This document shows, piece after piece, positions 2,137 through 28,168 of a stretch of 36,514 bases of DNA; position 1 is the stretch's first letter, and every line of letters starts with the position of its first letter. A program made the translations under genes and the position numbers. Origin of the DNA: Catajapyx aquilonaris (Eukaryota); contig KZ539020.1 of NCBI GenBank assembly GCA_000934665.2, positions 1 to 36,514 on the forward strand, read 5' to 3'. Below the pieces are notes generated by a model. That model did no database searches and was not told where the DNA came from. It saw only the letters and a list, made by a program, of their open reading frames with translations.

Positions 2137-3972
2137 GTTAATATTATTAAGTATTGTCCAACAGGATTAAACTGCATAGATCAGCGTAATATTGTATTAG
2201 GTGAGCAAATATTGTGGTGATATAATATCCTATTGATGTTAAAATTAATAACATTGATGAAATGGATGTGTGTAGTCAGCCTATTTTGTCCGCGATATTT
2301 TATTAAATAATTCGAATTTGCCACATTAACAATACTCGTTCAACAGTAACTTACATCGCTAATAAACGGAAGCAGACCTCCACAAAAAAAAATACTGAAC
2401 ATATCAAGCATGGTTGAAGTTCAGAATGAGTTACCACACTATTTACTGTGCAATACTCTTGAGGTATAAATAGTCTGTCAATGCACCATGCATGTTTGCA
2501 GCATATAATAATCATAAATATTAATGAACATAACAAGTATTATCATCATTAGCCATAATTAATATCGTACATAAATTAACGGGGCTTCACTTCTAACGGC
2601 TAGTTGCACAAACAGCAGTACCGTATTAGAGGTGAGTACTGCTATAAACTACAAACAAATTTTGTGAGCACACTGGCATCACTTCTGATGTGTTCCATCC
2701 GCAGGCTAAAGCAAATGCTCCACCACTTTGATTTCCAGGCCGAATTAAGGCCGGAAATAAGAATATCCGGTCTGTTTATTTCACTCTAGAAACCCATGTG
2801 GGCGTCATATTAGCAATGACATTAGGTGTGGGGTCCGGGTATTTGTTTATTTGCGAACGTTCTTGGATGGTGCTTACAATCCACTTTCCGCGGGGTTCTA
2901 GAGTATACGACGCAGGGCTGACAGAAAGTCAATACGCGTTGACCGGTGTGCTAATGTTTTGAGCGCTTTTTTTTTCCTTGGACAGATTGACATGGAGTGG
3001 ATCACTTGATGATATAGCAGTTAGTTCACTGTGTGATTTTTTCGAGTGTTCCAGGTCATTACGTTTGCTTTGCGACAGAATGCCCCAGATACGTTTGTTC
3101 AACATCGGATGTTTTACTGGGTACATTCATTTGGATAATAATACAGGAAATAGTTGGAATTTTTTTGCGCCATTGTTAGCTTTAGATCACAGTGCAACTT
3201 GTTTCAGTACAACTTTCGTGTTCGTCTAAAGTAATGTTTCGGACATCTAGGCCTCCTTATTAACAGCAACATTAAATATTAATATTCGTAATCAAGATGT
3301 GCCCCAATAAAAGTGTCTCATTTACTAATGCTATAAAATGAAAATAAAAATTCTCACACTTTCCAAAATTTTCCTATACGGACTTTTCAAATTTTAGTAA
3401 AGTTCACAATATTTTTCGACCCCTCGTCTTCGTTTCTGGATGTTCGTTTCTGGATGGCTATTATATGGATGTAACACACGATGTACTCACTCTGCAAGTA
3501 AGTTTCTTTCTTCATGCATGAACTGCCCAACTGCCTCTTGAACGTGATATACCGTACCTCATTATTTTTGTTGTTGAAAATATTGCATCTCTTGTAACTT
3601 TGGAAGTGCAATGCGATACCCATGTCAAGCTCCTCATGTTGGCATCAAATTTCCCTATCATTGTAATGGTATCATATGCCAAGAAAAAATTTCGGTAAAG
3701 GTTTATCGTCAACAAGCTATGTGAAATAATTTTTCTCGATATTCTCATACGCAGGATAAGTATTTTCGAAGCCTTTTTGACATCTACTACTTCAGTAGTC
3801 ACTTGATTAATACTGTTAATATATTGTGTGATATATCACATGAGATTTTGAGTCCAATATAATAATATGCAGTTATAGTGCTATCATTACATACGCTCAA
3901 CTGACCACTTTGGGGAGTCAACTGACTTCTGACTAGGCCGTTTTTCTATGTTTTTCTCAGGTGCTTCTCTAT

Positions 3973-4094
3973 CCTCCTGAGACCCGGAGTACAGTATACT
4001 GTACCTTTGTTTTTGTTTTTTTACGCGTTTGAGTTAGTCAGGAGGTGCTGGAAAAAACAAAGGTACAGTATACTGTACCAGGGGTCTCAGGAGG
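3973..4094. mobile_element. Short palindromic MITE-like element
   Basis: CCTCCTGAGACCC...GTACAGTATACTGTACCTTTGTTTTT is mirrored by AAAAACAAAGGTACAGTATACTGTAC...GGGTCTCAGGAGG. Target duplication is unclear. Confidence 0.7.
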
Positions 4095-4405
4095 CTATAT
4101 GACTGCACCACGTACGACGTTCTATGGCAAGAGAAAACCCTGGAACATGCCTAATTCACCTGAAGACTTTGTCAGCCAGATTAAAATGTTAATGCACTAA
4201 CAAGCAATAAGAAATTAAGCTTGCAAAAAATTTTTAGAGAAAAGAATATACAAAGGGGATTTTAGTCCGCAAAATAATAATGCAAACCAGCTTTGAGCGA
4301 CTGATGCAGATCACGCATTTTTTGTGCATGATATGTGACCTAAGGAGAGATAAGAAAAGCTTTTTTCAAAGCCAGATTTGAGTCAGAATTTGAATGAAGA
4401 GAGAA

Positions 4406-4768
4406 GGGAAGGTGCGGTGGCCGAAATGGTAACGCCTCGGCTTGCTGAGTGAAAGTTTCCAGGTTCGATCCCCTCTGGGAGTTCCCTTTCACCTGCGTCA
4501 GGAGGGTCTCTGACCTGCACCAAGGAGGTGTCTGGCAACCTAACCTCCTGGGGGACTGCACATGCCCCAATTTGAGACAATGCACTTGCACCCGTGTCCC
4601 CTCCCCAAGAATCCCTATGTCCTTGATCCCTTGCACCGGAGACTGAAGAAAAACTACACTCTAGAAAACTGATGGTGGTGTGCCACCCCCCTATAAGGGC
4701 CACGTGATAGGGCTGACTATCACGGGGTTGAGAGAGAGAGAGAGAGAGCGAGAGAGAGGGAGAGAGAG
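4406..4768 (+). mobile_element. tRNA-derived SINE, family A copy 1, ending in an (AG)n tract
   Basis: A box TGGCCGAAATGG (4418) and B box GGTTCGATCC (4462). Body is homologous to 25686-26150. Confidence 0.85.
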
Positions 4769-5162
4769 AATGAATAGAGAATAATTTGGAAATTGCAGAA
4801 TTCTGCAATATATTATCCTACATTTTGTTTCACAGGCAAAAGCTTTAATAGCCTATGTGAAAGAATAACGATCAGACGCAATAATCCTACAGCCAAAACC
4901 CCAATTGCCCCGAATAATCCACAACGGTACATTCTTTTGACAAGGTGTCTGGGCACATTATAGTCTCCCTTTATGCAGCTGTTTCGTGTGGTCTTATAGT
5001 AACAAACTCATGCGATAATGTGTATAGGGTACCAGTTTATCCATATAGAAGCGTCATTTTACACTTCTCTGTAATCTGACTGTTCGCACTTGAGCAACTG
5101 TGTTAACTGTTTGCTAATTATGATACATGGTAAAGTTATTCACCCTAAACAAAACACGGGCG

Positions 5163-5324
5163 GGAGAAATCCACTAAGTTCGAAAAATCGTCATTCTGGC
5201 TTGCTGGCTCGTAATGAATCTTTAGGACTAAATGGGCTAAATAGAGAATTGAAAATGCTATTTTCTAGTGTACACACTGTAGGCTAACTCAAATCCGCCA
5301 AAAGTGGACTTAGTGGATTTCTCC
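5163..5324. mobile_element. Small element bounded by a 17-bp perfect inverted repeat
   Basis: GGAGAAATCCACTAAGT (5163) / ACTTAGTGGATTTCTCC (5308-5324). Superfamily not assigned. Confidence 0.5.
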
Positions 5325-5419
5325 TGTACGCCAACGATAAGTTCATTTAGGTACAGCGACATGACCCATATTTCAAAGTAGGGTAATGGAAATGCAGGGA
5401 AGCTCTCCTCGGCATACTC

Positions 5420-5880
5420 GACTTCATCCTGAAGAAAAGAGCTCTCGAATCAAGTTAAGCCCCGAGGTAAACAGAATGTATGACAAGATGTGACCGTGAT
5501 TCACGTTGAAGGGGCGGAATGGGCAACAAGGAAGTATAAGGCGACAGAGCACTGGGAGTAGTCGTATTTGTAGATGGCAGGCTGAGGCTGAAATAAAGGC
5601 AGCCAAGTGCGACTAAAGCCAATTTGAGAAGCTTTTGGTCCCGCATCGATATGGCTGCAGGCTTCCTCCGCCTTTGTGCATAGCACGCCTCCGCCTAATT
5701 ACAGGAAAGGCAAGTTCAAACAAAAGTTACGCCACCCTTGTCAACTCGTGATGCAATTAAATACAAGTTGACTGCTTTATCCTCCTTGGAGGCATTCCAT
5801 CACTTCCTTCCACTCCTTTGGCGCCATTTTTGGTCCCGCGCCCTATTAGGTATTAGTCAACGGCCGGGGCACAAAGACAC
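5420..5880 (-). mobile_element. Decayed LINE reverse-transcriptase C-terminal fragment (CR1/L2/Jockey-like)
   Basis: Interrupted translations KW...WNASK and HIDAGPKASQIGFSR...F.P...IYK resemble the W..FNASKT and HI..KAS..LG.L.R...YK motifs. Confidence 0.35.
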
Positions 5881-6063
5881 CCAAGTTTTATCGCCTCTGG
5901 CTTAAATTCATTCAGGAAGGAGAGCAAATGGATGGCTGTTCCGGACTAAGGAAACTTCATTTCCTTTGCAGGGATAAGTCCTCAACAACTGTGTACCAGT
6001 ACCGGTTTAAGTGCGGATGGAAGAGTCACTCAACAAGGCAAAGGTCGGAGCTGGCAAACTCAC

Positions 6064-6215
6064 CTGTACGGTGACGTCGGTCAACTGTCGGTTGGCCATC
6101 CACCAGGTGATCATGGCAGAAGGTCGGCTCCCAACAGCCCGACACTCGATTCCGTACTTCCGATTGGCTGATAAAACCGCTGGTCGTGGAAGGATCCGCA
6201 CGTATAACGGGCGAA
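6064..6215 (-). CDS. Internal exon of the same Ig-superfamily gene (first half of the next Ig domain)
   Basis: ttcttttctag|TTCGCCCG...GTACAG|gtgagt; 152 bp, phase 1-0, in frame. Translates to LRPLYVRILPRPAVLSANRKYGIECRAVGSRPSAMITWWMANRQLTDVTVQ, matching the LSAxxxYxIxCxxxGSRPxAxITWW motif of Sidestep-family Ig3. Confidence 0.93.
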
Positions 6216-7762
6216 CTAGAAAAAGAAAGATCATCCACACGTTAATTTTATGCGCTCCTCTGTTACGTATAGGTCACCTCTGTGTAGGGTAAAGATGGCG
6301 TATAATTTCACATTTCTAATAGCTCTCAGATGTTGTTTTTTTGCGTCAAACATGAACTTCTTGGCGTCACACGTTATTCTACGGAATTCAAAGGCTGCAT
6401 ATGTCAGTTTGAAATCGATGTTGAGTGAAGGTCACTGTACATTTTTACCCTGAATTCTTTAACGTGAGCACGATTCTGTAGCGTGCATTATTATTGCGCT
6501 AAAATATGACCAATTTGCGATAGTCACGTGTGGACAAAGGTTCCTTACCGCATCTCATGCCCTGCATTTATATTCCCCATGGGCAAAAATAAACACACGA
6601 AATGCGTGCTCATATTCTATCAAAATATTTTATAAGCACTGTGTTTGTGTTTGTAAGTGTCCCCTTTAACTAACTTGTAAGAAGCAGAACTTAGTTGTAT
6701 TTGTGGAGGCAGAAGCCACCGGTTTGACTATAACGTTAAAAGGCTATATTGTGAATGAATATAAATGTACAGTAACTTAAGTTATTCCATAATTATTATA
6801 ATAGTCGAGTCAATAGTGAAACCGTTCAATACTGTACCTCTAGTACTGTACCATTAGTGAATACAAAACTTTTTCACCTACCACGCGCTAATGTTGCTGA
6901 TTACGCTATGTGGTTTCATTACATTCCTACGAGTAATGCAACTGATTACTAATTGGAATAGTATCCTGTGCCTGGTTAGCAGGGTAGCCCCGTTTGGCGT
7001 TAGGGAAAATATCCCTATACCAATGACTCTCTTACTCGTGTATTAATAATAATGATTACGTTGAGAAACTGAGACGCTGTAAAAATGTCGCGTGGTGTTG
7101 ATAATTGTCTATTTCTAAGTGATGCCGCTCTAAATAAAATACAATGAGAACAGTTGAAATTTTATAGATTAAATGTGCTTGTAAAATTTTCAAGATGTCA
7201 CATGCCATTACAACAGTCTCATTATCCTATCATTCTGCTGAAGAACCAGTATCTCTGTTTTTAAGACCCAGATTGGCGTATTTAACATATCAATGAAAGG
7301 GTGACGTGATTAGTAACTCAAGTGGATATGTTCCTAAAAGCTGCTATTAATTATCACCTTTTAATCGTCCTTTAATATTTACTATGGGTACGGAACAGTC
7401 TGATCTACACTTTTCGAATACGCTCGTACGGTATATCATGTTACAAATCACATGCCCAACTGCTAGCCAGAAGGACGTAATTTTTCAGTCCTTACTCTAC
7501 ATCCCCTCAGGACAAATATTATCCATTATCAAAATCATTATTTGTAGCTTTTTGGCAAAACTTTTCGCCTCAGCCGTCTTTTGACCACAAAATTCCTTTT
7601 CAACTCAGAATGGTGTCCTTTGCATGTGGTATCACGCTGGTATCATATTTCCCAAACACCTTGTGCATTTGGAGGAAACATGAAAAGAACACAATAATAT
7701 CTCCCATTTCTAATAGGCAATATGATGGCGGCCAATATCTCACGATCAGTTTCGGATATATA

Positions 7763-7959
7763 CAGGGTGACTCTAAAGTCAGGATACATCATCGGTAATA
7801 ATTTGATTGAATTGTTGGTTTCCCGTTGTGCCAACTAGCAGATTAATTATTGACAGTCAGTAAAGTTTGAGTTGGCACAGTTGGCACTTAGAGTTAGCAC
7901 AACCGGCAACCAACAATGTCATTCAATTACCTATGTATCCTGACTTTAGAGTCACCCTG
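7763..7959. mobile_element. Tc1/mariner-type MITE
   Basis: Perfect TIR CAGGGTGACTCTAAAGTCAGGATACAT at both ends, TA on both flanks, and further imperfect internal symmetry. Confidence 0.9.
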
Positions 7960-8394
7960 TATTATAAACCCTATGCCCATAATATATTCAAAAATGTCAA
8001 CAATGAGTGCCACCAATAGTCTGAAAGACCGTTGCTAGGTATTGTAAAATCAGTTCCATTTCACAAGTTGGAGAGTTGGCAAGAGAGTACATTTTTTACA
8101 CTGCGCTATTCTGCCCGATCACCCCACCACCTTTAAGTACTCGTATGTATTTTGCACTTTTTATTAGAGGAGTAATTATTGTAAACAACTTGGGCATCAT
8201 TAAATTATAGGGTGACCACTAACGTAATACGGAGTTATTATTACCTAACTCCGGACCTTATACAAAATCAACCCAAATGGTACTCTGTGCATGTGTGGAT
8301 AACGCAGAGTGAGGCTTTTGTTACTCCAGTCTATAGAAATCAGAAGGTAAGTTTAACTTTCGGTATAACCTTTTTACTATTTGACATGGCACAT

Positions 8395-8686
8395 CAGTGG
8401 CGGAACTAGCCGCGCGGGGCCCTAGTTCGAAAGTATCGGAAGCCCTCCCCCCTTCACTTACATATGCACCTACCAGTGAAGACCATACCGGTATCACGTT
8501 CTTCGGACCGGAAAAATTGAGAATAATTTATTTCTCTATTTATGTTGGAAAGAAGGGGGGCCCTAGAGAGCCTAGTAGACACTTAGCCATGCCCATGAGG
8601 CCCTTCTCGACTCTCAATGGGCCTGCCACTCCCACCCCTGACCAGGGCCCCTATGCCTCCAGAATAGTGCGTTTTCACCTCGACAC

Positions 8687-8723
<37 letters not shown>

Positions 8724-8893
8724 CCCCCCGCAAAATGCTGAAAATTTTGAGACTATCTCGGGGACGGCTCGGCGCCACTTCTCTTTTGAACTATATGTTT
8801 TTTGTTGTTTTTTTTTGCGACAGTTGCCCAGGGGCCCCCAAACCTCAGGGGCAGTTCGGCCGAACCGTCTGAACTACCCTAGTTCCGCCACTG
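8395..8893. mobile_element. hAT-type MITE with 8-bp TSD and an internal (CT)n tract
   Basis: TIR CAGTGGCGGAACTAG/CTAGTTCCGCCACTG. TGGCACAT is duplicated at 8387-8394 and 8894-8901. Confidence 0.92.
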
Positions 8894-9768
8894 TGGCACA
8901 TTGATTATGAGATTGAGGAATGCCAATCAGGCAAGATGCGATTTGATTAGCATTTCCCCCGGATATAACTGCAAAAATACTGGGGTTCATTCAAAGGGCA
9001 ACATCTGCAGCATATCCCTAATAGTTTCATACTGTATACTCTAAACTCTAAAGTCATATGGCGTGTAGCTCAGAGTTTTGCAAGGGTAAGTACTGTACAT
9101 GCGAATGCGAAAAAAGTTTTTTTTTTTTTTTTTGCAAGTGCTTGGGGCTCCATATTATTAATATTTTTGCCTCGCACCTGTTGGCACCTTGATTCTATCT
9201 GCCCAGGTAGATCGCCAAGCACATTCCGTGAGCATATCTGGCAACCAATCACATTCTTCGTGAATGGTCACATGGGATGTCCATACCCCTCCCACCCTGT
9301 AGCCTCTCTTGGCACTCCTGCTCAACAAATCAACAAATCAACAAACACAACAATGCTCCGGCTGTCGGGCGGCAACAGTGATTGTAGTAGTGTCTCATGC
9401 TCGAGTCCTATGCTCAAATTTAGAGCCCTCGCTAGTGCATATGAAACCAACCAATAAGTGCTGAATTCTGCTTTAAGTGAGACATTCAGGAGGTAGGCCC
9501 GATTTTGATGTTTCTAGTGTGATAGGAACCCAATTAATATGTAGCTTTTTCTACGGTTAAACCGTAGTTATATTTTAGTACTGCATTAAGTAATGTGGAG
9601 AATTTCTTACATACTGTACGTAAGAATAATATTAAGTAATTTCATACGTGATACATTAAATTCTTTGGAGGAGACCAGCTGATCAGACTGTATTGTGACT
9701 TACTTCACATAATTATGTGAATATCAGTTAATATAGGCCTACTAAGTTAATAATACATTTCAACAGTA

Positions 9769-9892
9769 GTGCCGCCATATTGGAATGAAAATGGCTGACG
9801 ACACCAAAACGCGTCAGCTATGTAGCTGCACAGTGCAGCTACAGTACAGCGTTTTGGTGTCGTCAGCCATTTTCATTCCAATATGGCGGCAC
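9769..9892. repeat. Long hairpin with 44-bp perfect arms and an inner 11-bp palindrome
   Basis: 9769-9812 is the exact reverse complement of 9849-9892. Inner TGTAGCTGCAC-A-GTGCAGCTACA at 9821-9843. Confidence 0.95.
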
Positions 9893-10010
9893 AATATGTG
9901 CACTTACCCCGGGTGTGCACTAACCCCACTTCACCCTATATTATTTTAGTATTTGTAATTACAGTACACAATACAAATAGTGGGTCTTACTTCTTGCTGA
10001 AAATGGCTTA

Positions 10011-10110
10011 GGGGTCGTACACATATGGCGTCATCACATTTGTGACTTTTTTGAACCCCCTTCCCCCCTCGTCATACTTTGTCATATTAATTTGGTTTTT
10101 ATTACGTCAT
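10011..10110. mobile_element. Truncated left end of a PIF/Harbinger-type MITE
   Basis: TTA|GGGGTCGTACACATA resembles the TIR at 10228. No right end seen. Confidence 0.45.
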
Positions 10111-10227
10111 TTCCTCCACAAATGAATATGCTCATAAAGCATAATTCGAGGTGATACTTCTGTATGCCAAGTAAGCTCTATCAGGACCATACTCATGTAA
10201 CAAGCTCAGAAATTATCTCCTATATTA

Positions 10228-10614
10228 GGGGTCGTGCAAATACCACGTGACCGTTTTAGGGGGAGGGGGGGGGGGTCGGCGACAGTTCACGTGGTATCTC
10301 TGAACACGGTGAATGGGCACATATGGGAGCTTTTACAGATGCAACATGGGTTCAAAATAACGTAAAATTCGAAATCAGCGACCCCGAAAACATGGGGACT
10401 TGGGGAGACATGTTTTTTACGTGCTTAAACAGTTTAGTTGAGGAGCTATCATTTTGGAACGCGTTTTTTCTGATAACATTGACCTTTTAAAAAACCACGT
10501 GAAAAGGGGCAGGGGAGGGGGGGGGGTTCCAATGGATACCACGGTTGGTCACTGGGGGGGAAGGGGAGGTCCAAAAGTGACCTAAAATCGGTCACGTGGT
10601 ATTTGCACGACCCC
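10228..10614. mobile_element. PIF/Harbinger (Tourist-like) MITE, family H copy 1
   Basis: TIR GGGGTCGTGCAAATACCACGTGACCG at both ends. TTA at 10225-10227 and 10615-10617. Confidence 0.9.
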
Positions 10615-10896
10615 TTATTGGTACAAACAAAAGTAACAATAAATACATTATTGTTCATTCGATAAAAATTATTCTTCCAGTCGTTAAAAGTACCCAGTCA
10701 CAGGCATTCCATTTTCAGGCCATGTTTCTCATTGCTGAAAAGGTTTTTAAAACAACAACAACGGTGGCATTAAAATATACCCGGAGAAGATAAATGAATT
10801 CAACAGGTACAAGGACGCGACGAAGTATTAACAGCTAGGTCTTCGATCACTGATAGGAATTTTAACAAACATCTGCTTCTACCTTATCTCTACTTA

Positions 10897-11082
10897 GGTG
10901 CGTTTACATGTTAGCGATTTGATCGCGCGATGTCATCGCCACCGGTACCATCGCTGCGCAACCGAAGTAACCTGCATGGTTATTGTTTGTGGCGAAAGTC
11001 GATTGTTACTTTCACTCAAACAATTGGATTCATCGCTCGGCGATAACATCGATCGATCATATCGCTCACATGTAAACGCACC
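10897..11082. mobile_element. PIF/Harbinger-type MITE
   Basis: TIR GGTGCGTTTACATG/CATGTAAACGCACC, extending imperfectly inward. TTA on both flanks. Confidence 0.88.
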
Positions 11083-11103
11083 TTAAACCGTATGGACGAA
11101 TCC

Positions 11104-11142
11104 TATAAAATTTTCAATTCGAAATTAATTTTTAAATAAGTT
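11104..11142 (+). promoter_or_regulatory. Candidate core promoter of the nested gene
   Basis: TATAAAA at 11104-11110, and Inr-like TAAGTT (one mismatch to TCAGTT) at 11137-11142, upstream of ATG 11177. Confidence 0.3.
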
Positions 11143-11176
11143 TACACGAAAATATGCAATCCATTGTAGGAAAAAT

Positions 11177-11881
11177 ATGTCACCCCGTGACAGAGGAACT
11201 CGCCCCGAGTATGTTGTAGACTACCAAGAAGTGGAAGAGGAGGAGTTTGCGGAGGAAGAGGAAGAAGTGGAAGAGGATGCATGGGAGGATGCATGGGAGG
11301 ATGCATGGGAGGATGCATGGGAGGATGCATGGGAGGATGCATGGGAGGATGAATGGGAGGATGAATGGGAGGACGAGGAGGACGAGGAGGACGAGGAGGA
11401 CGGGAATCACCTTGAAGTCGAGGTATCTGGAATGCCGTCCGAGGAAAATCTGGTTCAGGCTTTCTTCGTGCATTGCCATGCACTTTTTTACATCCAAGGG
11501 AAACTACTCGACTTAGAACCCGGCATAGGTCCTTCCAATGAAGATACTGATACGAGAATTGCCATTTGGAAAGAGATATTTGCTATAGCTCTCCAAAATA
11601 CGGTAAAAATAGTGCGAGGGATGGAGGATATTAGCACCTCAGAGGACCTCCAAGCTATACTTGACAATCCAAACTTATTAATTTTACTGGATGAGAATTA
11701 CGACGTGGAAGCTCTAAGGAATCTTATGAGCGATATTTTCTCTAGCGACTTATTTACCGTCAATCTTAATGACAACGAGTTGCAGATAGGTGATACTGAT
11801 GATGTGGCAGCAGGCAGCAACTACACAGAGGTAACTTATGAAGGGCTTTTATTTGAAAATATATTATGGGTCCTTTTCTAA
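11177..11881 (+). CDS. Unrecognised acidic protein with (EDAW)6(EDEW)2 repeat; nested antisense in the host intron. Either 234 aa unspliced or spliced at 11830.
   Basis: Longest ORF in the window, ATG-initiated, with about 150 non-repetitive codons after the repeat. TATAAAA at 11104-11110. Candidate phase-0 donor GAG|GTAACT at 11830/11831. Confidence 0.6.
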   Translation: MSPRDRGTRPEYVVDYQEVEEEEFAEEEEEVEEDAWEDAWEDAWEDAWEDAWEDAWEDEWEDEWEDEEDEEDEEDGNHLEVEVSGMPSEENLVQAFFVHCHALFYIQGKLLDLEPGIGPSNEDTDTRIAIWKEIFAIALQNTVKIVRGMEDISTSEDLQAILDNPNLLILLDENYDVEALRNLMSDIFSSDLFTVNLNDNELQIGDTDDVAAGSNYTEVTYEGLLFENILWVLF

Positions 11882-12375
11882 ATGATTGTAAAATAGAGGA
11901 TAGCAGGACTCGGATGGACTGTTCATTTCCAAATTTCTTTTCACTAAGCGAGTAGTAGGAAAATGGGAGCACTCGCAACTCTTTAACGATCGGTATGGTT
12001 GGGTAAAGCAGCTGTAGATTTTGTAGCCTGAACATAGCTGCCTCCAACCTTTTTACAGAAGAATGATTTAATATCTGATGTTAGGCTAGTCTATAGTTTT
12101 TGCAAGATACTTATACTGAACCGTAATTATTATAACTTTCTGTGGGTATACAATCTTGACATGGGAAGTGTGTACAATAAGATGTTCGGTTGGCGGCGAT
12201 AAAATATCGACGGAAATATTGAACATTACAACATTATTAAACTGTCAGATTTTCCACGGGCCTGCTGGTAGAATCACTAGAGTTATGTCAAAGTAAAGCC
12301 TACAATCCAGTTCAATGATTCTGACTAACCTGCCAGTTTAACGGCATTTGATATCCGGTATAAAGACAACTCTTA

Positions 12376-12501
12376 TGCCTGATTGCACCAACTGAATTAC
12401 CGATCCGATAGCTCCTAACAAATCGTTAGGTAGCCCTTTTAACGTGCCCTAACGATCTGTTAGGGGAATCGGATCGGTAATTCCGTTGGTGCAATCAGGC
12501 A
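12376..12501. mobile_element. Fold-back MITE, probably Harbinger-type
   Basis: TGCCTGATTGCACCAACtGAATTACCGATCCGAT is mirrored at the right end and the element is almost wholly palindromic. Flanks are TTA/TGA. Confidence 0.8.
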
Positions 12502-12576
12502 TGAAAGAGGGAGAAGCAGCTTATCACAAAATCTTTGTAAGCGTACTGTACATGCGAATTTTCTTTCATTTACCAG

Positions 12577-12618
12577 GATGACCCGCAGGAGGCTGATGAG
12601 AATACCAGCCCGGAATAA
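12577..12618 (+). CDS. Putative terminal coding exon of the acidic nested gene (DDPQEADENTSPE*)
   Basis: Strong acceptor ttttctttcatttaccag|G. The phase-0 reading matches the donor phase and keeps the acidic composition. AATAAA at 13027-13032. Confidence 0.4.
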   Translation, partial: DDPQEADENTSPE

Positions 12619-12640
12619 CCGGAAGTAAGCCCCGAAGACA

Positions 12641-12864
12641 AGAGGAAGAAGTGGAAGAGGAAGAAGTGGAAGAGGAAGAAGTGGAAGAGGAAGAAGTGGA
12701 AGAGGAAGAAGTGGAAGAGGATGAATGGGAGGATGAATGGGAGGATGAATGGGAGGATGAATGGGAGGACGAGGAGGACGAGGAGGACGAGGAGGACGGG
12801 AATCACTTGAAGTCGAGGTATCTGGAATGCCGTCCGAGGAAAATCTGGTTCAGGCTTTCTTCGT
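12641..12864 (+). pseudogene. Partial, frameshifted duplicate of the acidic repeat block (about 11257-11469)
   Basis: The unique segment GGGAATCAC(C)TTGAAGTCGAGG...GCTTTCTTCGT is identical to copy 1 except for a 1-bp deletion. Repeats here are (EEEVE)5(EDEW)4. Confidence 0.7.
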
Positions 12865-15800
12865 CATCGGAGGGGGGGTCATCGGGGGTGCTTGGGGGTC
12901 ATCGGGGGGAAAAACATCTGTTTACATTACACATAACTCCAAATGGAGCACTTTTATCGACATTATTGTTTTACAAGCTTCAATGCCATAGTTTCAGAAA
13001 CATTTTAAAATGGGATGATCATTGTTAATAAAATATTATTGCTAATATGTGTATTTTTACTTTTGGTGGCTCTATGTCACATAATTGATCCTCGCTAATT
13101 TAAAAATCCATATTTAAGATATCGGAGAACAGCTCAGTTTCAATTCATTGGTTCATACCCTTCAGATTGGAAGATATACAAAACCTCCACTAGGACCACA
13201 CATTATGCAGTATAACTCATCTCTTTGTAACCTAAAGTGTGATTTAATGAGGTTAGCAAGCTCACTTGAAATACACCAACAGCAGCAAGTTGGCAATCCA
13301 ACAACAGCGTTTTCCCCCACATTTTTAAGCCCCAGTTTTTATGAATGAACAGGTTGTGACGTTGTGCTAGTCATAAAGTGTTCCGTAAGCCCGCACTGTA
13401 CATGTTTGGAGGCTCCTGTCCTTTGCTGGATACATGTCTGCTGCCTCATAACTTTGCTGGTGACAAATGCCCCGACTGTGAACTGAGGCATAGAGATAAG
13501 CGCGCATGCACAAAATACATATTCATCATTTCCAACACTGAAATCGCGCTAACAGCTCGTTCACCAGACTTCCTCCGTGTCCCCTATAGTACGGCAAAGT
13601 CACGCATAAGCTCTTTATTAAGTACACAATAATCTCTCCGTTACTTTTTTCATCCGTGTGTATGTGCAATAATGTCAAGAATCAGACACTAAGGATGGTA
13701 CTTGAATGAATAATTACGATTGAGAGAACGTACTCTCTTGGATGATTTTCTCTGTGCGGTAGATAAGTCACACAAAATTATAATTAGCCGTTTTCAAGTT
13801 ATGCTTGAAATTGCTCATTGCTATAGGCTAATGAAGCTTATAACAATCACACAATTATAATGTGTTACAGTCATTTGGCGGCGTTTGGGTAATGTACAAA
13901 TGGAATATCCGTGGGGTGATTGACTGCAGTTGGTCAATTAGCTTGGCGTCATGTTATGGATCAAAAGTGCTGGAGATGTGTTCCAATGTTAGTTAAATAA
14001 AAATGATTTCAAATTAAATTGTCACGCATTGTAGGCATGATTACATGGGGGAAATATGGTCTGGCGTGTCAAGTGTCATAGACAATGACGTGACTAACTC
14101 GTAAGTCTGGATTACAAAAAGAGCATCATTTGGAAGTGCACATTTCAATAAATAATCACTAAACTATTATTAACATTAAAGGAACTTTTTCTGGTTTCTG
14201 TAAAACTCAATCCAGCATGTACACAGCAACCAGTCCAATAAAAAGGTGAATAGCCCTTTTAATGAAAGTTGCACAGAACATTCAATTCATATAATGCCTT
14301 CAAGCCACAGCATGAATGAACAAAACTTCGCTGATGCGAAGTAGTTCACTTTGGTCTACATAAGGGCAGACAAGTTTGATCTTCAGTCCAGGCTCTCCTT
14401 ATCATTCATGAAGACTTGCGGTCTCTCCGCTTAGTTTTAGGTGGGCGCGGCCGATGGAAGAGTCAAAGACTAGCCACTTACAGTCCAAGCCCTAGGCGTG
14501 TAAGAACATGGCCAAACTTAACCACTGGATCTATCATGGATGTAGTGCCTCTCATTTTAGAGCACTGAAATGAGTACCGTATAGGCCTACTCACTCTGTG
14601 AAGAAACTACTAATTACAGTATTTCCCCTCACCTTACAAAAACATCGTGCCTAATGTCTTTTCCGAATATAACATCGCTGTAAACGGCTTGAACGACTTA
14701 TTCTTCAGCATAAATACTGTGATTTTACCAAATACCCGTTTGGGTAACTGCTAGTAGACTATAGTAGGGCTTTTACTATATTATGCATGGAAATCTAGGC
14801 GAAGATTACTTGGTGCTCCATTTATGATTGGTTCCGTCGTTAACTTCCTCACACACATATGTGGGCATTTTTGCGGTAACGAACCAAGGTTCGGACGATT
14901 TTTTAAAACTTTCATTGGGATTTTCCATGCTTGTAGAAAACCTTTGGGGATTTTGGTTTTTTTTCTATCGAGTTCCAGGTACAGAGGGCTGCATTTTGCC
15001 TCAAATGTGATACAAACCCTCGATAGCGCCAGAGGAGCGAGAACAAACAAGGTAACGAACCAAAGTTTTGAGGACACACCAATCAGAGGATTCTCATGTA
15101 TTAGTCGATTGAGATGGCTGGGTCGTATGACCTGGTCATCGCTGACTACATCATCGTGGGACTATGCCATGATGATTGTGTATGTTGGATGTAACCCAGT
15201 ATGAAAAGGGTGCTGCCTGCCTACAAACCAGTCTTTGGGGACCAGGCTGACACACACACATCAATGAAGTTATGAACTGACTAGAATGGAAAACGTTTTA
15301 ATAGAGGTTTATTCAAAAAATTATAACAGCAAATTACCATTTGGCTCGTAAGTACAAAAATTATCTCGGGCAGTGAAAGACAAGGAAGTTCATCAGTACC
15401 ACAGATAAATGCAGATTTTTAAATTTACGGCCTATATAAAAAGCGGGAGGCTGTCATGACTGGGAAGAATCAAAGACTAGCTGCCGCCACCTGCCACCTT
15501 GACCGCTAGAGACAATTATTAACTTCCGGACCACCCATCTTGCAGTGGCATTGTAAATAAAGACAACTGTTTATAACCTGAGGAATTCGTGAAAATTCGT
15601 TTTCAGCATCATAAATAAGAACCACTGAAGAGTACAGGCCCTCTTCTGGAGCTGTATCCCTCCCCCTTCCTCCAAAAAAATCGGAGGTAGCATGAGGGCA
15701 TATCCGGATAACACATCGCTCCACTTTGATTTGTAACTTTTTACATCGAATTTGAAATCAGAGCCCTTTAAAGCCCCCGTAAACTAATTTTGACGCTAAG

Positions 15801-17867
15801 ACTGTATTATTCCTGTCCAATTCTCACACATGCTGTCTACCATATCGGATCTGCCATTTTAAATTTCGAATTTGTGATATCAGATCTGAAATCAGCGCCA
15901 TTGAAAACCATTACATAAAAATTTCTGCATTTTTGGCCGTGGATTTACTTATTACCTGATGAGCTGGCAGCAGAGATCGGAGGGAGAGCGCTCAGTGGCA
16001 GGTTGTTGCTTTGGTTCGTTACCGTCCAAATAAATACATAAATGTATGGTATTGGGCTGAATCTTTGCACACTCCTGTATTGCATTACTCCCATGGGGGT
16101 TTGCAAGTTTGACGCTCCAAATCATTGGTATAGGGTGCGTACGGGAATTCTGTGTAATTTTTGGTAACGAACCAAAGCTTTCGGATGACTCTGGTTAGTT
16201 ACTGAAAGTGACGCACACAGATATCACCCTCCGACAATTTAAGCACATCAATCGAAAGAGGACATCAAGCTGCATCCAACAGACATGCTGAGAAGTGATC
16301 GAATGAATGGAAATGCTTATAGAGGCGCCAAAAGACGCGCGTGTCCCCAGACACCAAAGGGCCGTCTGCGCGCACAGTTGAAAATAAGAGCAGCTGGTGC
16401 CAAAGAACAGCAACACTGGGCATTGTTTAGTAGACATCTTGAGAATCCTATTGGTGTGAAAAAATCGCGGTATTCAACGAAAAAAATAATCGTCGCTTGA
16501 TGTCCGCTCTATCGCAAAAATGCCCATGACAAAGTTGTACCGACTGTGAGTAGAAGCCCTATATTAGGTTGCATGACCTGTCAGCCAATGGGAAATGAGG
16601 ACAGACCAAAGCAGGCAGGCATGGGGAGCGGAGTCATACGGAATCCAGCGCTGCAGGTTCTGGCTCATGAAGTGGAAGATGACGGCGCCCATGAGGTCGA
16701 CAGAGTGGGTAATGACTGTAGCAGGTCGGCCATAGGCCTACTATTAAATAGTCCGTCGCATCTACAGACTTCCATGTTAAAAGTGTAAAATATCACTCAT
16801 CTGGCCCATTGTGCGACATAAGGCAGCGGTCCAGCCCACCTCAAGTCCACCTAGGTCCCGATTTGGTGTAATATGCCAGATCCTATTCTGATATCTGATA
16901 TAGTGAGCGGCATGACACGAAACCGGCCATGTGACTGCACATCGGAGCGACGCGACGTTCGCTGCCCGGGATAGAAATATGTCCCTGCTGTGACACAAGT
17001 CCGTGGATGTGTGCCTCCGCTTTTAGAATCAGATATGACTTCTCTTCAGCCGAATATTAGCAATTAATATTTTTGGTAGCGCAACACACTGTATCAAACA
17101 CTAAGTATGATTACATCGTATACTCATAAACTCTCAAGAAAGCGCGTTAGAAATTAATAACTAAAAATTAATGCGCTCCTTATTCGCTACAGAATATGAA
17201 GGAAAACAATAAGTAGCAGCATGAAACAAATTCTTGCAGAGCTCTTCATTCTTGTCAGATAAGATTCAAAAGGGCCTCCTTTTCAATTCCTCCCTCTTAA
17301 TTGCCTCTTAAAACTTCCTATTGCTACTAAGAAACAATACCAGTTCCATATTCTATATACCAGCACCACGAAGGCACCGATTAACAACCTTCATTGTTGA
17401 TATATCGTCCTAGTACAGTAATGTAAACACTTTTTAAAAACCATATCGATCATGAAAGATGCGTGATTCGAGTCCCCACATGAACACATGGTTTGAGGAC
17501 TCTTTTACGACGCCCCCATCACATGATCAATATACGTCAATGGCAGAGCACCTCTGCAACAGAAGTGCCTGTCACGAAGTCAGCCACGAAAAGCAATAAA
17601 AGAAAAAGTATTTACTCTGCAGTAACGACTACTAATATAGCAATCATAAAATATGTCTCCATATTTATTAATATTTGTATACATATTTCTAGTAGATATA
17701 TAGTTTGCATCCTTCACCAACATCATGATTTCTTTGACATTTCGTGAAGAGTTTGTAAAAAGACCGGTTGTGACCCCAGCAGGGAGTCGAGAAAGTTTCG
17801 CTTCACCTTGCCGCGCATTAGAATATAGTAGTAGGAAGGAAAACTTGAAAGGCCAGCGCCTACTCAC

Positions 17868-18071
17868 GGTTGAGCTCGATCCGAACGGTTTTTTGCAGCG
17901 GCGCCGTGAGATTGGTGTTGGAAGCCTGGCAGGTGAGATTGGCACCCAAGTGCTCGCGAGCCACATTACTGAAGAGCAGCTGGTTCACCACTCGCTCGTC
18001 GTCCACTTCTTCTTCCAAGCCGTCGACCAGCGCCTCCTCCACGTACCACACCACGCTGGGCAACGGATCAC
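17868..18071 (-). CDS. Internal exon of the same Ig-superfamily gene (second half of the Ig domain)
   Basis: tttgcgcag|GTGATCCG...CTCAACC|gtgagt; 204 bp, phase 1-1, in frame with the previous exon. Translates to GDPLPSVVWY...VVNQLLFSNVAREHLGANLTCQASNTNLTAPLQKTVRIELN, containing the Ig core Trp and second Cys. Confidence 0.93.
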
Positions 18072-19099
18072 CTGCGCAAAGAGATGTACACTTTTGAGTA
18101 CTGTCGGAAGTTTGCTTTGCTTAGGGAAATACGTAATATATGCAAAGCTGCAACGAATGGAACTTGACAGGCAGGGGTTTGCACGAGTCCAGCTTTATTC
18201 GGGGGGCAAAACAAGCAGTTGGAAGCGCTCAAGGCGGGAATAAATCTTATTGGGGGGCGGGGGGGCGGGGGGGATGGCTGCCCGAGGCACACGGATTACC
18301 TCATTTCACGCTGCGCCACGTCTCTTTGCCCACACCATTTATTCCTGGGGTTCCTGTTGCGCCACCAAAACTTTCTTCCTTCTTTTTCCTTCCTCTAACT
18401 CAACCGTCTTGATGCCAAGAATCCCAATGCCCTGGCTTATTTACTTACGTGCACCGAACTGGCATCGGCACCACTCAGGAAGCCAACTTCTCCTACATGC
18501 CCAAGGCCAGTGTGTTTTGCTTCAGTGCAGTCTTTCGGACTCGAGAATAACTAACATCGGTACTCACAAAGCAGAGTAAAACTCAAAAGGAGGCAGAGAG
18601 AGGCAGCGTGTGGTGCGGCTTCAATATTCAACTTTTGTCAGAGCTATTGGAGTGGAAAAGGCCTCCGGTATTCAACTCTGCCAAGACACTGGCGTATTGT
18701 TTCTAAACGGCATTCCTGTTTCCCCGGAGAAGTTGGTGACAAGACTGAGAGTTTGTCAAACTTTGTCAAGCTGCATATTGAGTTGCGGTGACGAGAGGCA
18801 AAAGATAGGAAGGAAGTAAGGCGAGGAAAGGAGGGGGAGACAGGGAGGGGAGGGAGAGACAGAGGGAAAAACGGATCAAGATGCGCCTTTATGCTCTTTG
18901 TCCTCCCTTCTCGCACCAAGCGCAGTGTCACGGCGTCTTCTTCGATACCTACGCCTCTCATTTTGTCGTTAGTTGCATGCTCTGTTACTCTCAAGCCACC
19001 ATCTTTCCTCACCTGTCACTGCAACTGCTGCTGCTTATGGAATCGTTACACCCTCAATTTACAATCATTAAATAACGATCCCAGCCTTTTTTGACTTTC

Positions 19100-22745: not shown

Positions 22746-23637
22746 CTGCAAGAGACAAGGATAATGATTGTTAAATTAGTCGGCTACTTGGGAAAACAAA
22801 AGGGAAACACTAATTTTGTCATTATTTTCCGATCGATGTTGCGATCATTAATGTTCTCACTAATGTAGAAATAATGGATGAACCACACTGTATTCGTCAC
22901 TGATCATTATTTTGCTGTCTGTTGCATGTGGAATCCATACTAAATGAAGAGTGGGTATTCAAAGTGCCCGGATATGCAAGCCCTGTAAGTGAACCTATCA
23001 AGTGGTGCCGTCTCAGGCGGACAAACCTCACAGTCAAAACTGCTTTATAGTCGGAAAAGACTAGTCTCAAGCCAGCTTTGGCAATGCAAATTTCTTGCAA
23101 CTTAAATTGCAAAAACACTCAGGTAAGAGAGTCGAGTTTAATGTATTTAGGCCCTATTTAAATTCAAGCCCAAGTGCTGGATGCTGTCGGACATGAAGCA
23201 GCATTTAATGGACCTCCACCCTGCATCCTTAAAATTAAACTTTCTCCATGTTCGTCCAAATTAAAGACTTCTCTGAAGCGCTGACAAGACCTGTTCGAGA
23301 AACTACTTCGGCATTGCAATCAACAACCTTTCACGACCCATTAATATTTGCACGTTATGGTCTCCCTGGTGAGGAAACTTCAAGGACCTACCAGTGCTCT
23401 TCATATATCCGATCCGTCGAAAAAGTAGTGGAATATTAATTTTTGCTCCCGTCTTCTAGCCCGCATAAGCAGATCGAGTAACTGTGCAGGACATATTTTA
23501 TATAAAACTCGCAACTTCAGACATCCTAAAACGGGGCGAGATTGTGCCAGCGCATTTTTGGACAACAGTGGCAGCAGGCGCAAACTAGCGAATTTCGGCA
23601 TGTTTCACAACATTGAGAGATGGTCAAGGTTGGCAAT

Positions 23638-23638
23638 A

Positions 23639-23705
<67 letters not shown>

Positions 23706-23978
23706 TCATACCCCGTTATCAGTCGGCGGCTCTTTAGGGGGGGATTTTTGTTTTGAATGGAACTCTTTCTTTGCATTTTTACTTCGCTTTTGGGGATAGG
23801 ATAGGGACGGAAGGAAGCGGCTGTGGCCTATTATTTTAGGAAACAACCCCGGCATTTACCTGGAGGGACCGTGGAAACCACAGAAAACCACGGTTAGGGT
23901 TGCCGGCCCCGGGGATCGAACCCAGTACCTCCCGATTAGCAGTCGGATACCATATCCCCTCCGCCACCACTGCTTCGG
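23638..23978 (-). mobile_element. tRNA-derived SINE, family B, with an (ATT)n tail
   Basis: Minus strand has A box TGGCGGAGGGG and B box GGTTCGATCCC (23912-23922), then body GTGGTTTTCTGTGGTTTCC...AAATGCCGGG. Trinucleotide tract at 23638-23705. Confidence 0.8.
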
Positions 23979-26150: not shown

Positions 26151-27096
26151 ATTTTAAAAAAATTGCCAAATGAATCCCAATAATGTAGGACTTGCTTAAT
26201 ATGGACTGGCTTGAGCTGCTCGTAAATTGAGTTAATTTTTGGGCATATTTATGTAAGGCATAGATTAATCGCTATCAATTATTAAAATCTGTCTCGGATA
26301 CTCTGGCGAAGTTTATCTTGAGCCATCTGGTATATAATGAATACTAACAGACTTGATTCTAAGTTGAAACTTCCTCACATCTGGATTACTGAGAAAATCT
26401 TGTGATAAAGACCTGAATAAGAATGCGAGGCTAATATTCTTTCCTCCAGTGAAGAAAACCAATACCTAAATCCATATTGAATACAAAACAAGACATTTTA
26501 TACCTGAAGTACGCTGTAAAACACTCATTATCACCCACTTTTTCCGAGAACTCTGGTGCTGTATCGTAGGCTGAATTAACTCTCCATTATTGTTTCTACA
26601 ACTGCGCTTTCAACCATCTCCATACCATTGTCGTCATCGCGTAATTACGAAGAACGAGGCCTGAACAATCTTATTCAATATTCAATGATGATTCAAACAG
26701 AATTAGGTTATGGAGCGCTGCATATTATACAGTATAAGGCTGAGGCAAATTCGGTAGTCTTCAACGAGCAACATTGTTAAGTGGAAACTGCTTCCTTGCA
26801 CGCAGCATGCTCGGAATGATAGTCCTAGGAATATTTCCGTTACATGGAGCGAAAGTACCAAATCAGGCAGCCTCTGCTGCGTGGTTAAGAGCCTTCTGCA
26901 TGCACTACTACATCTAGTACTTTTTCTATACTGACTACCTGCGGGGTTTACGAACTGTTGCACCTTTTTTTTGTAACAGTATACAGGGTGCTTCTAAAGA
27001 TGTGTATTTCCCCGGAATATGTCAAGATAAATTATTTGACCACATAGTCCAGTTTAGTCATACATATCGATAGTGAGAGAAAGTGGGAACCTTTAA

Positions 27097-27492
27097 GGGG
27101 TCGTCCATATACCACGTGACCGTTTTGGGGGGGAGGGGGGGTCTGCTGATATACCACGGTTGGTCACGGGGGGGAGGGGAGGGGGGGGGGTCGGCGAAAA
27201 TTCANNNNNNNNNNNNNNNNNNNNNNNNNNNNNNNNNNNNNNNNNNNNNNNNNNNNNNNNNNNNNNNNNNNNNNNNNNNNNNNNNNNNNNNNNNNNNNNN
27301 NNNNNNNNNNNNNNNNNNNNNNNNNNNNNNNNNNNNNNNNNNNNNNNNNNNNNNNNNNNNNNNNNNNNNNNNNNNNNNNNNNNNNNNGGGGGGGGGGAGA
27401 GTGGGTTCCAATGGATACCACGGTCGGTCACTGGGGGGTAGGGGGTGTCAAAAAGTGCCCGAAAATCGGCCACGTGGTATATGGACGACCCT
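27097..27492. mobile_element. PIF/Harbinger MITE, family H copy 2, spanning an assembly gap
   Basis: TIR GGGGTCGTCCATATACCACGTG; TAA on both flanks. Homologous to 10228-10614. Confidence 0.85.
27205..27387. other. Assembly gap (183 N)
   Basis: Run of N between G-rich tracts. Confidence 0.99.
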
Positions 27493-28168
27493 TAATGTTT
27501 AAACACATTCAGTGTAAGTCCTATTAAAAATTATTGACCTCGGGGTTAAATTAAGACGATTGTCATAATTATGTTATGTCCAGAATTATATGACCCATGA
27601 CCCGACCTTTAATAAGCAAAATCGAGAATATGATACACTTTTACAAATCACATACAAATACGAATAGGTTAATGGTTTTCATGTGACAGCACACACTCAT
27701 TGTAATGCGGAAGTATAGTGATATAATTATGCTGGTGTAGGCATACTCAATTATGAGCGAAATGAAACTGTCGCTAACAAACTGGAACAATTTTCAACGA
27801 AAAAAATGTTCAAAATAATTGTATCAGCCGTTACCAACTTTTGTGGTCACTTTGCATTGCATTGCATTTTTCACTAGCTGAAAATTAGTTGTTTTAAAAA
27901 AGTTTTCAAATGGAACGGACGCAAATATCCATGCCCTACTCTTTTGATGAGTGGAATTATATATTAGTCGGCTGTATTACTAAAGAGCATACGAAAGTAC
28001 TTCCTGTTTATTTTTTTTACAAATTAGATAGGTCATTCCTTGCCACGTAACAATGCACTGGCTGCAGCGTATTTCGCTACAAGCAACAAAGTTCTGCAAA
28101 TATACCGTACATTATTTGATGGCAAGTAATACTTTGGGACGTAGACGATAAATAAAATGTTCGTTATA

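Follow-up and report, generated by a model that had tools for sequence, protein, structure and literature searches.

Orphan genes nested in introns are a common class in insect genomes, and orphan open reading frames (ORFs) of the kind described here are common in repeat-rich arthropod genomes. We analysed a 36,514-nt stretch of DNA from Catajapyx aquilonaris (assembly GCA_000934665.2, contig KZ539020.1, positions 1 to 36,514 of the forward strand; hereafter the window), in which an ATG ORF of 234 codons on the plus strand encodes a very acidic protein with a Trp-periodic array. Like nested insect orphan genes, this candidate is short, would have one or two exons and lies antisense in a long intron; as for these genes, no homologues were found, the predicted product is rich in sequence that is of low complexity and probably disordered, and the surroundings are repeat-rich. 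Nested orphan genes are defined by expression and phylogenetic restriction; the candidate is described here from its sequence. We consider it an evenly balanced proposition that the ORF is a single-copy, taxon-restricted coding gene, nested antisense in the intron of an immunoglobulin (Ig) adhesion gene, or such a gene that became inactive only very recently. Compared with fresh frames born from non-coding DNA, its strong codon-position signature is more typical of established coding sequence.

The protein itself recalls several described systems. Long uninterrupted Asp/Glu tracts, which are not Trp-periodic, are found in polyacidic nuclear proteins and histone chaperones such as prothymosin-alpha, ANP32 and the tails of nucleoplasmin. 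In Arp2/3 activators of the WASP-type VCA class, a WH2 (V) domain precedes an acidic Trp-containing tail. W-acidic cargo motifs (SKIP, calsyntenin) are ligands of the TPR domain of kinesin light chain; in these motifs, a central Trp is typically flanked by Asp or Glu, in a highly negative and unstructured stretch, often with Leu or Met two residues before it (W-2) (PMC5450233). For acidic activation domains (ADs), the section 'Predicting ADs' of another source gives two single-property cut-offs, applied to tiles of 39 residues: a net charge not above -9, and 7 or more residues among W, F, Y and L (PMC9241528).

The predicted product runs from an E-rich start through (EDAW)6(EDEW)2(EDE)3 into 159 non-repetitive residues. 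Both the 234-codon ORF and this array had been announced in an earlier reading of the sequence (the original prediction), which put the non-repetitive part at about 150 residues, and both were retrieved in the translation. The net charge is -63 (72 D+E, 9 K+R), and 8 of the 10 Trp lie within the array. Taken from stop to stop (11129-11881), the frame has 250 codons. The window has 57 frames that reach 90 codons, and this one is the longest, followed by frames of 179, 162 and 161 codons. Coordinates of all features are collected in Table 1.

Table 1. Position of the ORF, of its candidate gene signals and of neighbouring elements in the window.
Feature	Position	Strand	Basis
ATG ORF, 234 codons and TAA stop	11177..11881	+	translation of sequence
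Non-repetitive coding-like part, 159 codons	11402..11878	+	frame shuffles and codon-position chi2
In-frame tandem arrays, 12-nt (EDAW/EDEW) then 9-nt (EDE)	11273..11402	+	Tandem Repeats Finder
Block A, acidic arrays and 59 nt of unique coding sequence	11256..11473	+	self-BLAST
Block B, partial direct duplicate of block A	12640..12867	+	self-BLAST
TATAAAA, candidate TATA box, 67 nt before ATG	11104..11110	+	direct reading, motif scan
Out-of-frame upstream ORF, ATG at 11154, 21 codons and stop, overlapping the main ATG	11154..11219	+	reading, ATG scan
Proposed intron, GT at 11831, AG at 12575-12576	11831..12576	+	sites read from sequence
Proposed second exon, DDPQEADENTSPE and stop	12577..12618	+	translation
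AATAAA, candidate poly(A) signal, beyond block B	13027..13032	+	motif scan
MITE-like inverted repeat (MITE, miniature inverted-repeat transposable element) inside the proposed intron	12370..12507	.	40-nt arms, 93% complementary
188-nt inverted repeat directly upstream of the TATA box	10896..11083	.	45-nt arms, 89% complementary
Host-gene exon, Ig (C2-set) domain	6010..6273	-	Pfam C2-set_2, E 0.0013, below gathering cut-off
Host-gene exon, Ig domain	17863..18120	-	Pfam Ig_3, E 0.00023, below gathering cut-off

Coding signature of the reading frame

Length alone is not decisive for this ORF, since several frames of its repeats, on either strand, are free of stops and about one frame as long as the non-repetitive part is expected by chance: with the stop frequency of the window (0.050 per codon), a geometric model predicts that about 1 frame in it would reach 159 codons. 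The base composition of the non-repetitive part (477 nt) is ordinary (A 146, T 137, G 107, C 90). Upon dinucleotide-preserving shuffling of these 477 nt, the ORF frame was open in 0 of 20,000 cases, and any of the six frames in 3 of 20,000. The surroundings had originally been described as stop-rich, and the counts agree: the other five frames contain 6-14 stops in the same 477 nt, and 12-22 stops per frame are found in the 695 nt downstream.

The distribution of bases over the three codon positions was strongly uneven in the 477 nt, with a chi2 of 38.3 (6 degrees of freedom). The frequency of G was 0.36 in first position and 0.12 in second position, where A and T both reached 0.36, and this pattern is the usual one of real coding sequence. 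Because the mere requirement of an open frame creates some periodicity, the null models were restricted to stop-free frames of 159 codons; these were generated by first-order Markov models, for which the training sequence was the ORF itself, the window outside it or the local flanks. Under each of these three nulls, the observed value was reached in 0 of 5000 simulations, null means being 7.6-8.3 and maxima 30.9-32.6.

The signal was present in both halves of the part of the ORF not shared with the partial duplicate described below, which gave 13.6 (68 codons) and 20.9 (67 codons). No codon-position signal was detected in the flanks, the 488 nt downstream scoring 4.3-4.5 in the three frames and the 500 nt upstream 7.8-8.4. 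We also compared the ORF to the other frames of the window, i.e. the 30, among 36 of at least 100 codons, that overlap neither the arrays nor a poly-Asn run. Per 100 codons, chi2 was 24.1 for the ORF, against a maximum of 14.8 among these frames; the frames of 161 and 162 codons scored only 3.7 and 3.5. We conclude that the non-repetitive sequence bears the mark of translation, which shaped it at some time.

The poly-Asn run, an AAC/AAT trinucleotide array, comprises some 23 Asn codons in a row within an open frame of 102 codons, at 23429-23734 (+). The strong codon periodicity of that frame is due to its Asn-codon repeat only.

Copy number, tandem arrays and search for relatives

Determining the copy number of the ORF in the genome had been proposed as a check in the original prediction. 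Briefly, contigs of three DNA runs from one sample, and of one run from another sample, were compared with region 11403-12640 at 80% likeness. In each of the three DNA runs, a single contig of 964 nt spanned 11440-12403 with 0 differences, these runs being possibly the assembly's own source data and giving no independent confirmation of the sequence. Its word depth was 19.6-29.5, the other listed contigs of these runs being mostly at 15.9-45.6, and no second contig was found on 11487-12368 at 80% likeness in the three runs. Word depth approximately doubled in bin 11445-11486, as would be expected if the 59-nt segment shared by the two blocks described below existed exactly twice in the genome. 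At 80% likeness, the ORF is thus single-copy in 3 of 3 DNA runs, and no dispersed family is formed by the acidic block; copies that have diverged further would escape this test.

The acidic region is made of two arrays, one with 12-nt units (11273-11373, 8.4 copies, 98% matches) and one with 9-nt units (11368-11402, 3.9 copies, 100% matches). The GA-rich 12-nt units place a Trp at every fourth residue, and EDAW and EDEW differ by one base. Self-BLAST revealed that this block A has a partial duplicate, block B, 1.4 kb downstream in the same orientation, with 89.6% identity over 230 columns. The two blocks share an exact match of 59 nt (11411-11469 and 12806-12864), and the remainder of the ORF has no second likeness anywhere in the window. 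Block B is built of different units, 15-nt x5.7 (EEEVE) and 12-nt x4.4 (EDEW), followed by 9-nt x3.9 as in block A. It has neither an EDAW unit nor an ATG, and a 1-nt deletion just past its arrays, which the ORF copy lacks, puts its 59 nt out of frame. All five arrays of the locus have periods divisible by 3, namely 12, 9, 15, 12 and 9 nt.

Being nearly homogeneous (98% matches), the 12-nt array must be young or turning over fast, and the Trp-acidic array is evidently a young in-frame minisatellite. Together with the differing units of block B, this speaks against a multivalent design conserved for long, and calls for caution in taking the array for a refined multivalent device. Block B, with its other units, offers a natural 'before and after' of repeat turnover.

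Block B stops abruptly at 12867. Directly past this breakpoint lies a G-rich stretch (12865-12935) with three near-repeats of a motif like TCATCGGGGG, which may mark the insertion or junction that cut off the duplicate. A purine excess on the plus strand was also observed over 11001-13000 (GC skew +0.21 to +0.23, AT skew +0.10); it is marked, sets this region apart from all other parts of the window and is explained by the two GA-rich array blocks.

The ORF product had been said to belong to no recognised family, and our searches returned no relative in Pfam, in 1.84 billion representative proteins or in PDB sequences. With the ORF protein, Pfam-A gave DUF4816 only, at E 3.7 and 8 bits for a cut-off of 29.4, and on the repeat; with the 250-codon stop-to-stop frame, 0 families were found at E <=0.01. 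For residues 76-234, an exhaustive phmmer search of 1,835,955,588 representative proteins gave 0 matches at E <=0.001, and PDB sequences gave 0 at E <=10. A word-indexed protein search with the same residues found no relative among 71 near-length and 538 longer candidates. As a control, the Ig exon at 17863-18120 (-) likewise found no match in the 'longer' part of this search, so that silence of the word-indexed search is weak evidence for this taxon. In the ESM Atlas, neither the C-terminal part nor the whole protein gave a usable match. Among viral and environmental sequences, no match was obtained with tblastn in phage records, and none of the pattern matches found in IMG/VR (9) or in JGI metagenomes (232) was confirmed.

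Likeness to acidic and Trp-containing proteins

For the candidate gene, we infer transcription, translation, an optional splice and any binding function. In the mechanism proposed here, in-frame expansion of the GA-rich 12- and 9-nt units would build an N-terminal region of about 75 residues, probably disordered, while a C-terminal region of some 145-160 non-repetitive residues would give specificity or localisation. The polyacidic, Trp-studded region might form a fuzzy multivalent surface for partners that are basic or bear aromatic pockets, a proposal made with low confidence.

The original prediction had recognised in the array the grammar of W-acidic docking motifs and of acidic ADs. As regards W-acidic motifs, composition agrees: as in the kinesin light chain ligands described above, the Trp of the ORF product lie in an Asp/Glu-rich, highly negative and probably unstructured stretch, and each of the 8 array Trp is followed by E-D, being preceded by A (6) or E (2). 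The agreement does not extend to position W-2, which is Asp in all 8 repeats (Leu or Met in 0 of 8), whereas Leu or Met is frequent there, and non-obligatory, in the described motifs. Moreover, known W-acidic adaptors carry one or two motifs, compared with eight at 4-residue spacing in the array, and the array is a young minisatellite rather than a conserved motif.

As regards acidic ADs, 50 of the 196 tiles of the ORF protein pass both cut-offs, and array tiles go down to a net charge of -27 with 7-8 aromatic residues. Relative to the acidic exposure model (VP16, CITED2 class), the likeness is one of composition only. The predictor behind these cut-offs was applied to transcription factors, whereas the ORF product has no DNA-binding or tethering domain in Pfam. 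In addition, its charge is far more extreme, with Trp as the sole hydrophobic residue. By analogy, and with low confidence, the array might bind in a mode like that of acidic ADs or W-acidic docking motifs.

No WH2 family was found in Pfam at E <=10, unlike what is seen in Arp2/3 activators. With the polyacidic chaperones, the ORF product shares long uninterrupted Asp/Glu tracts and a very low isoelectric point, and no sequence relation to them was found.

A bolder proposal is that the ORF encodes a new lineage-specific protein, in which the minisatellite-encoded array, with eight Trp-acidic units spaced by 4 residues, engages cellular proteins that read such motifs (for instance kinesin light chain, Arp2/3 or the pockets of coactivators) as a super-multivalent hub or decoy, and the C-terminal domain represents an undescribed family. 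We hold this to be very improbable. If it were true, repeat slippage would have created a potent interaction module in one step. More generally, if the gene is expressed, it would show how a Trp-periodic polyacidic module can arise when a minisatellite expands in frame, and it would be a clean taxon-restricted gene, with a strong coding signature and no detectable relatives, antisense in the intron of a neuronal adhesion gene. If it is not expressed, it would be an ordinary unannotated ORF of little consequence. Such loci help to calibrate orphan-gene annotation in repeat-rich arthropod genomes.

Gene signals, surroundings and rival readings

The signals that the original prediction had placed around the ORF are present at the locus; block B, the MITE-like element and the upstream ORF had gone unnoticed in it. 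A TATAAAA precedes it, at 11104. If transcription begins about 30 nt after this candidate TATA box, the upstream ORF would be part of the 5' untranslated region, and would then be a mild argument against efficient translation. A candidate donor, GAG/GTAACT, is located at 11830/11831, in phase 0 and 218 codons into the ORF, and a candidate acceptor, TTTCATTTACCAG/GAT, at 12576/12577. Joining the two would give a product of 218+13 = 231 residues ending with DDPQEADENTSPE, exactly as had been proposed; the frame of this second exon does not open before 12541. Without splicing, the reading frame runs for just 16 codons past the donor, and therefore the ORF needs no splicing. The AATAAA at 13027 is the only one within 10900-13300, an ATTAAA being found at 12236. 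Block B falls between the proposed stop codon (12618) and this AATAAA.

An antisense position within a Sidestep-like intron had also been predicted. Minus-strand exons of the Ig superfamily of adhesion proteins were found on both sides of the ORF, about 11.6 kb apart. The Pfam scan covered every stop-to-stop frame with 70 or more codons (136 frames), and Ig matches were on the minus strand only. Compared with PDB sequences, the exon at 6010-6273 (-) matched SYG-2 (E 2.1e-5), and also Roughest and Kirrel, and the one at 17863-18120 (-) matched neurotrimin (E 3.2e-5), and also SYG-2 and IgLON5. These Ig matches span E values from 2e-5 to 3e-2, and no Sidestep sequence is among them.

The coding signature, the single copy, the lack of a known family and the position antisense between Ig exons fit together with a lineage-specific nested gene. 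Several points weigh against this reading. First, about one frame as long as the non-repetitive part is expected per window. Second, as regards initiation, the ATG of the upstream ORF is out of frame, lies 23 nt before the main ATG and is in an equally good context, and a motif scan found no TCAKTY initiator between the TATA box and the main ATG. Third, no homologue was found in any collection searched. The ESM Atlas gave a recognition value of 1663, below the 2300 that is reached by 91 of 100 known-family proteins and 9 of 100 shuffled ones. Fourth, structural analyses gave no support. Single-sequence AlphaFold2 gave no confident fold, with a mean predicted local distance difference test (pLDDT) of 49.1 for the whole protein and 43.8 for residues 84-218, and no residue at or above 70; in the whole-protein model, helices cover 89-188 with pLDDT of about 58-65. 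Nor does the amphipathic character suggested in the original prediction stand out: at 100 degrees, the mean hydrophobic moment of residues 85-192 was 0.195, a value reached by 2930 of 5000 shuffled sequences, whose average was 0.204 +/- 0.035 (in four control frames, 123-981 of 1000 reached theirs). Finally, inverted-repeat elements surround the locus and part of it was duplicated recently, which shows that the region is unstable.

The MITE-like element inside the proposed intron is present in very high copy, with a summed word depth of 2700-10000, versus about 20-30 beside it, and about 200 contigs aligned per run. In run X5, which comes from the second sample and from another study, contigs match this element only, in 4 of 30 bins.

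Since the coding signature records translation at some time only, it would also be displayed by a dead relic that was once coding and is now silent, its frame being still open for lack of time. Such a relic could be, for instance, part of a fast-evolving gene that was duplicated or moved here, or the only ORF copy left of an extinct mobile element. The frameshifted partial duplicate and the MITE-like insertions testify to recent rearrangement, as such a history would have it, and the upstream ATG, the missing initiator element and the failure of protein searches to return any annotated protein with the ORF sequence are in keeping with silence. We nevertheless find a relic rather unlikely, for 234 codons have remained free of stops and frameshifts behind an ATG and a TATA box, in a place where the other frames accumulate 6-14 stops per 477 nt. 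Besides, no parent or sister copy at >=80% likeness is present in the contigs of the source genome, and Pfam recognises no transposable element (TE) domain in the ORF.

A protein that was never made is the next explanation, the ORF being then a stop-free GA-rich minisatellite that abuts some 160 open codons by chance. The codon-position analysis makes such an accident improbable: the chi2 of 38.3 was out of reach of all 5000 stop-free simulations under each of the three nulls, the frames of 161 and 162 codons scored 3.7 and 3.5 per 100 codons versus 24.1, and the signal ends at the borders of the ORF. An accidental frame would account for the openness of the arrays in several frames and on both strands, and for the existence in the window of frames of 161, 162 and 179 codons when about one of at least 159 is expected. 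It would also agree with the lack of homologue and of confident fold, the low Atlas value and the null result of the hydrophobic-moment test.

While a lineage-specific nested gene is supported by the coding signature, the single copy, the absence of relatives and the antisense position, the other origin envisaged in the original prediction, a captured or domesticated accessory gene of a TE or an endogenous virus, fared poorly, and we grant it little probability. A captured gene would suit an intron crowded with inverted-repeat elements and an ORF that can be read without splicing, and for the accessory ORFs of mobile elements or large DNA viruses it is frequent that no relatives can be detected. 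Against these stand the single copy at 80% likeness and the fact that the ORF is not enclosed by terminal repeats; the internal partial duplication is the one direct repeat. Pfam detects no TE or viral domain, the best match being DUF4816 at E 3.7, and no relative came from IMG/VR (0 of 9), phage records or JGI metagenomes (0 of 232). On reading the sequence of the locus, neither a poly(A) tail nor a target-site duplication was seen. A retrogene was rejected, as no poly(A) tract follows either poly(A) signal and the contigs contain no parent copy.

Other elements were noticed in the window. A perfect palindrome at 9769-9892 (44-nt arms, 100% complementary, 36-nt loop) resembles a foldback or a miniature element able to form a hairpin. 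Nested inverted-repeat pairs at 10224-10618 and 10042-10581, with 34-nt arms (94%) and 27-nt arms (74%) respectively, suggest that a further non-autonomous element, some 400-540 nt long, immediately precedes the putative promoter region of the ORF. Over the whole window, Rfam gave 0 matches at gathering thresholds and ARAGORN 0 tRNAs. At 3390-3644 (-), Pfam reported Phlebovirus_G1 (Phlebovirus glycoprotein G1) at E 0.0065, with 15.4 bits for a cut-off of 25; this is probably noise, because about one such match is expected by chance in 136 frames, and no other TE or viral domain turned up in any of them. The assembly has a gap of 183 N at 27205-27387, whose flanks (27077-27527) are G-rich and alike in inverted orientation; this suggests that an inverted repeat was collapsed or left unresolved there. 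One isolated N is also present at 1074.

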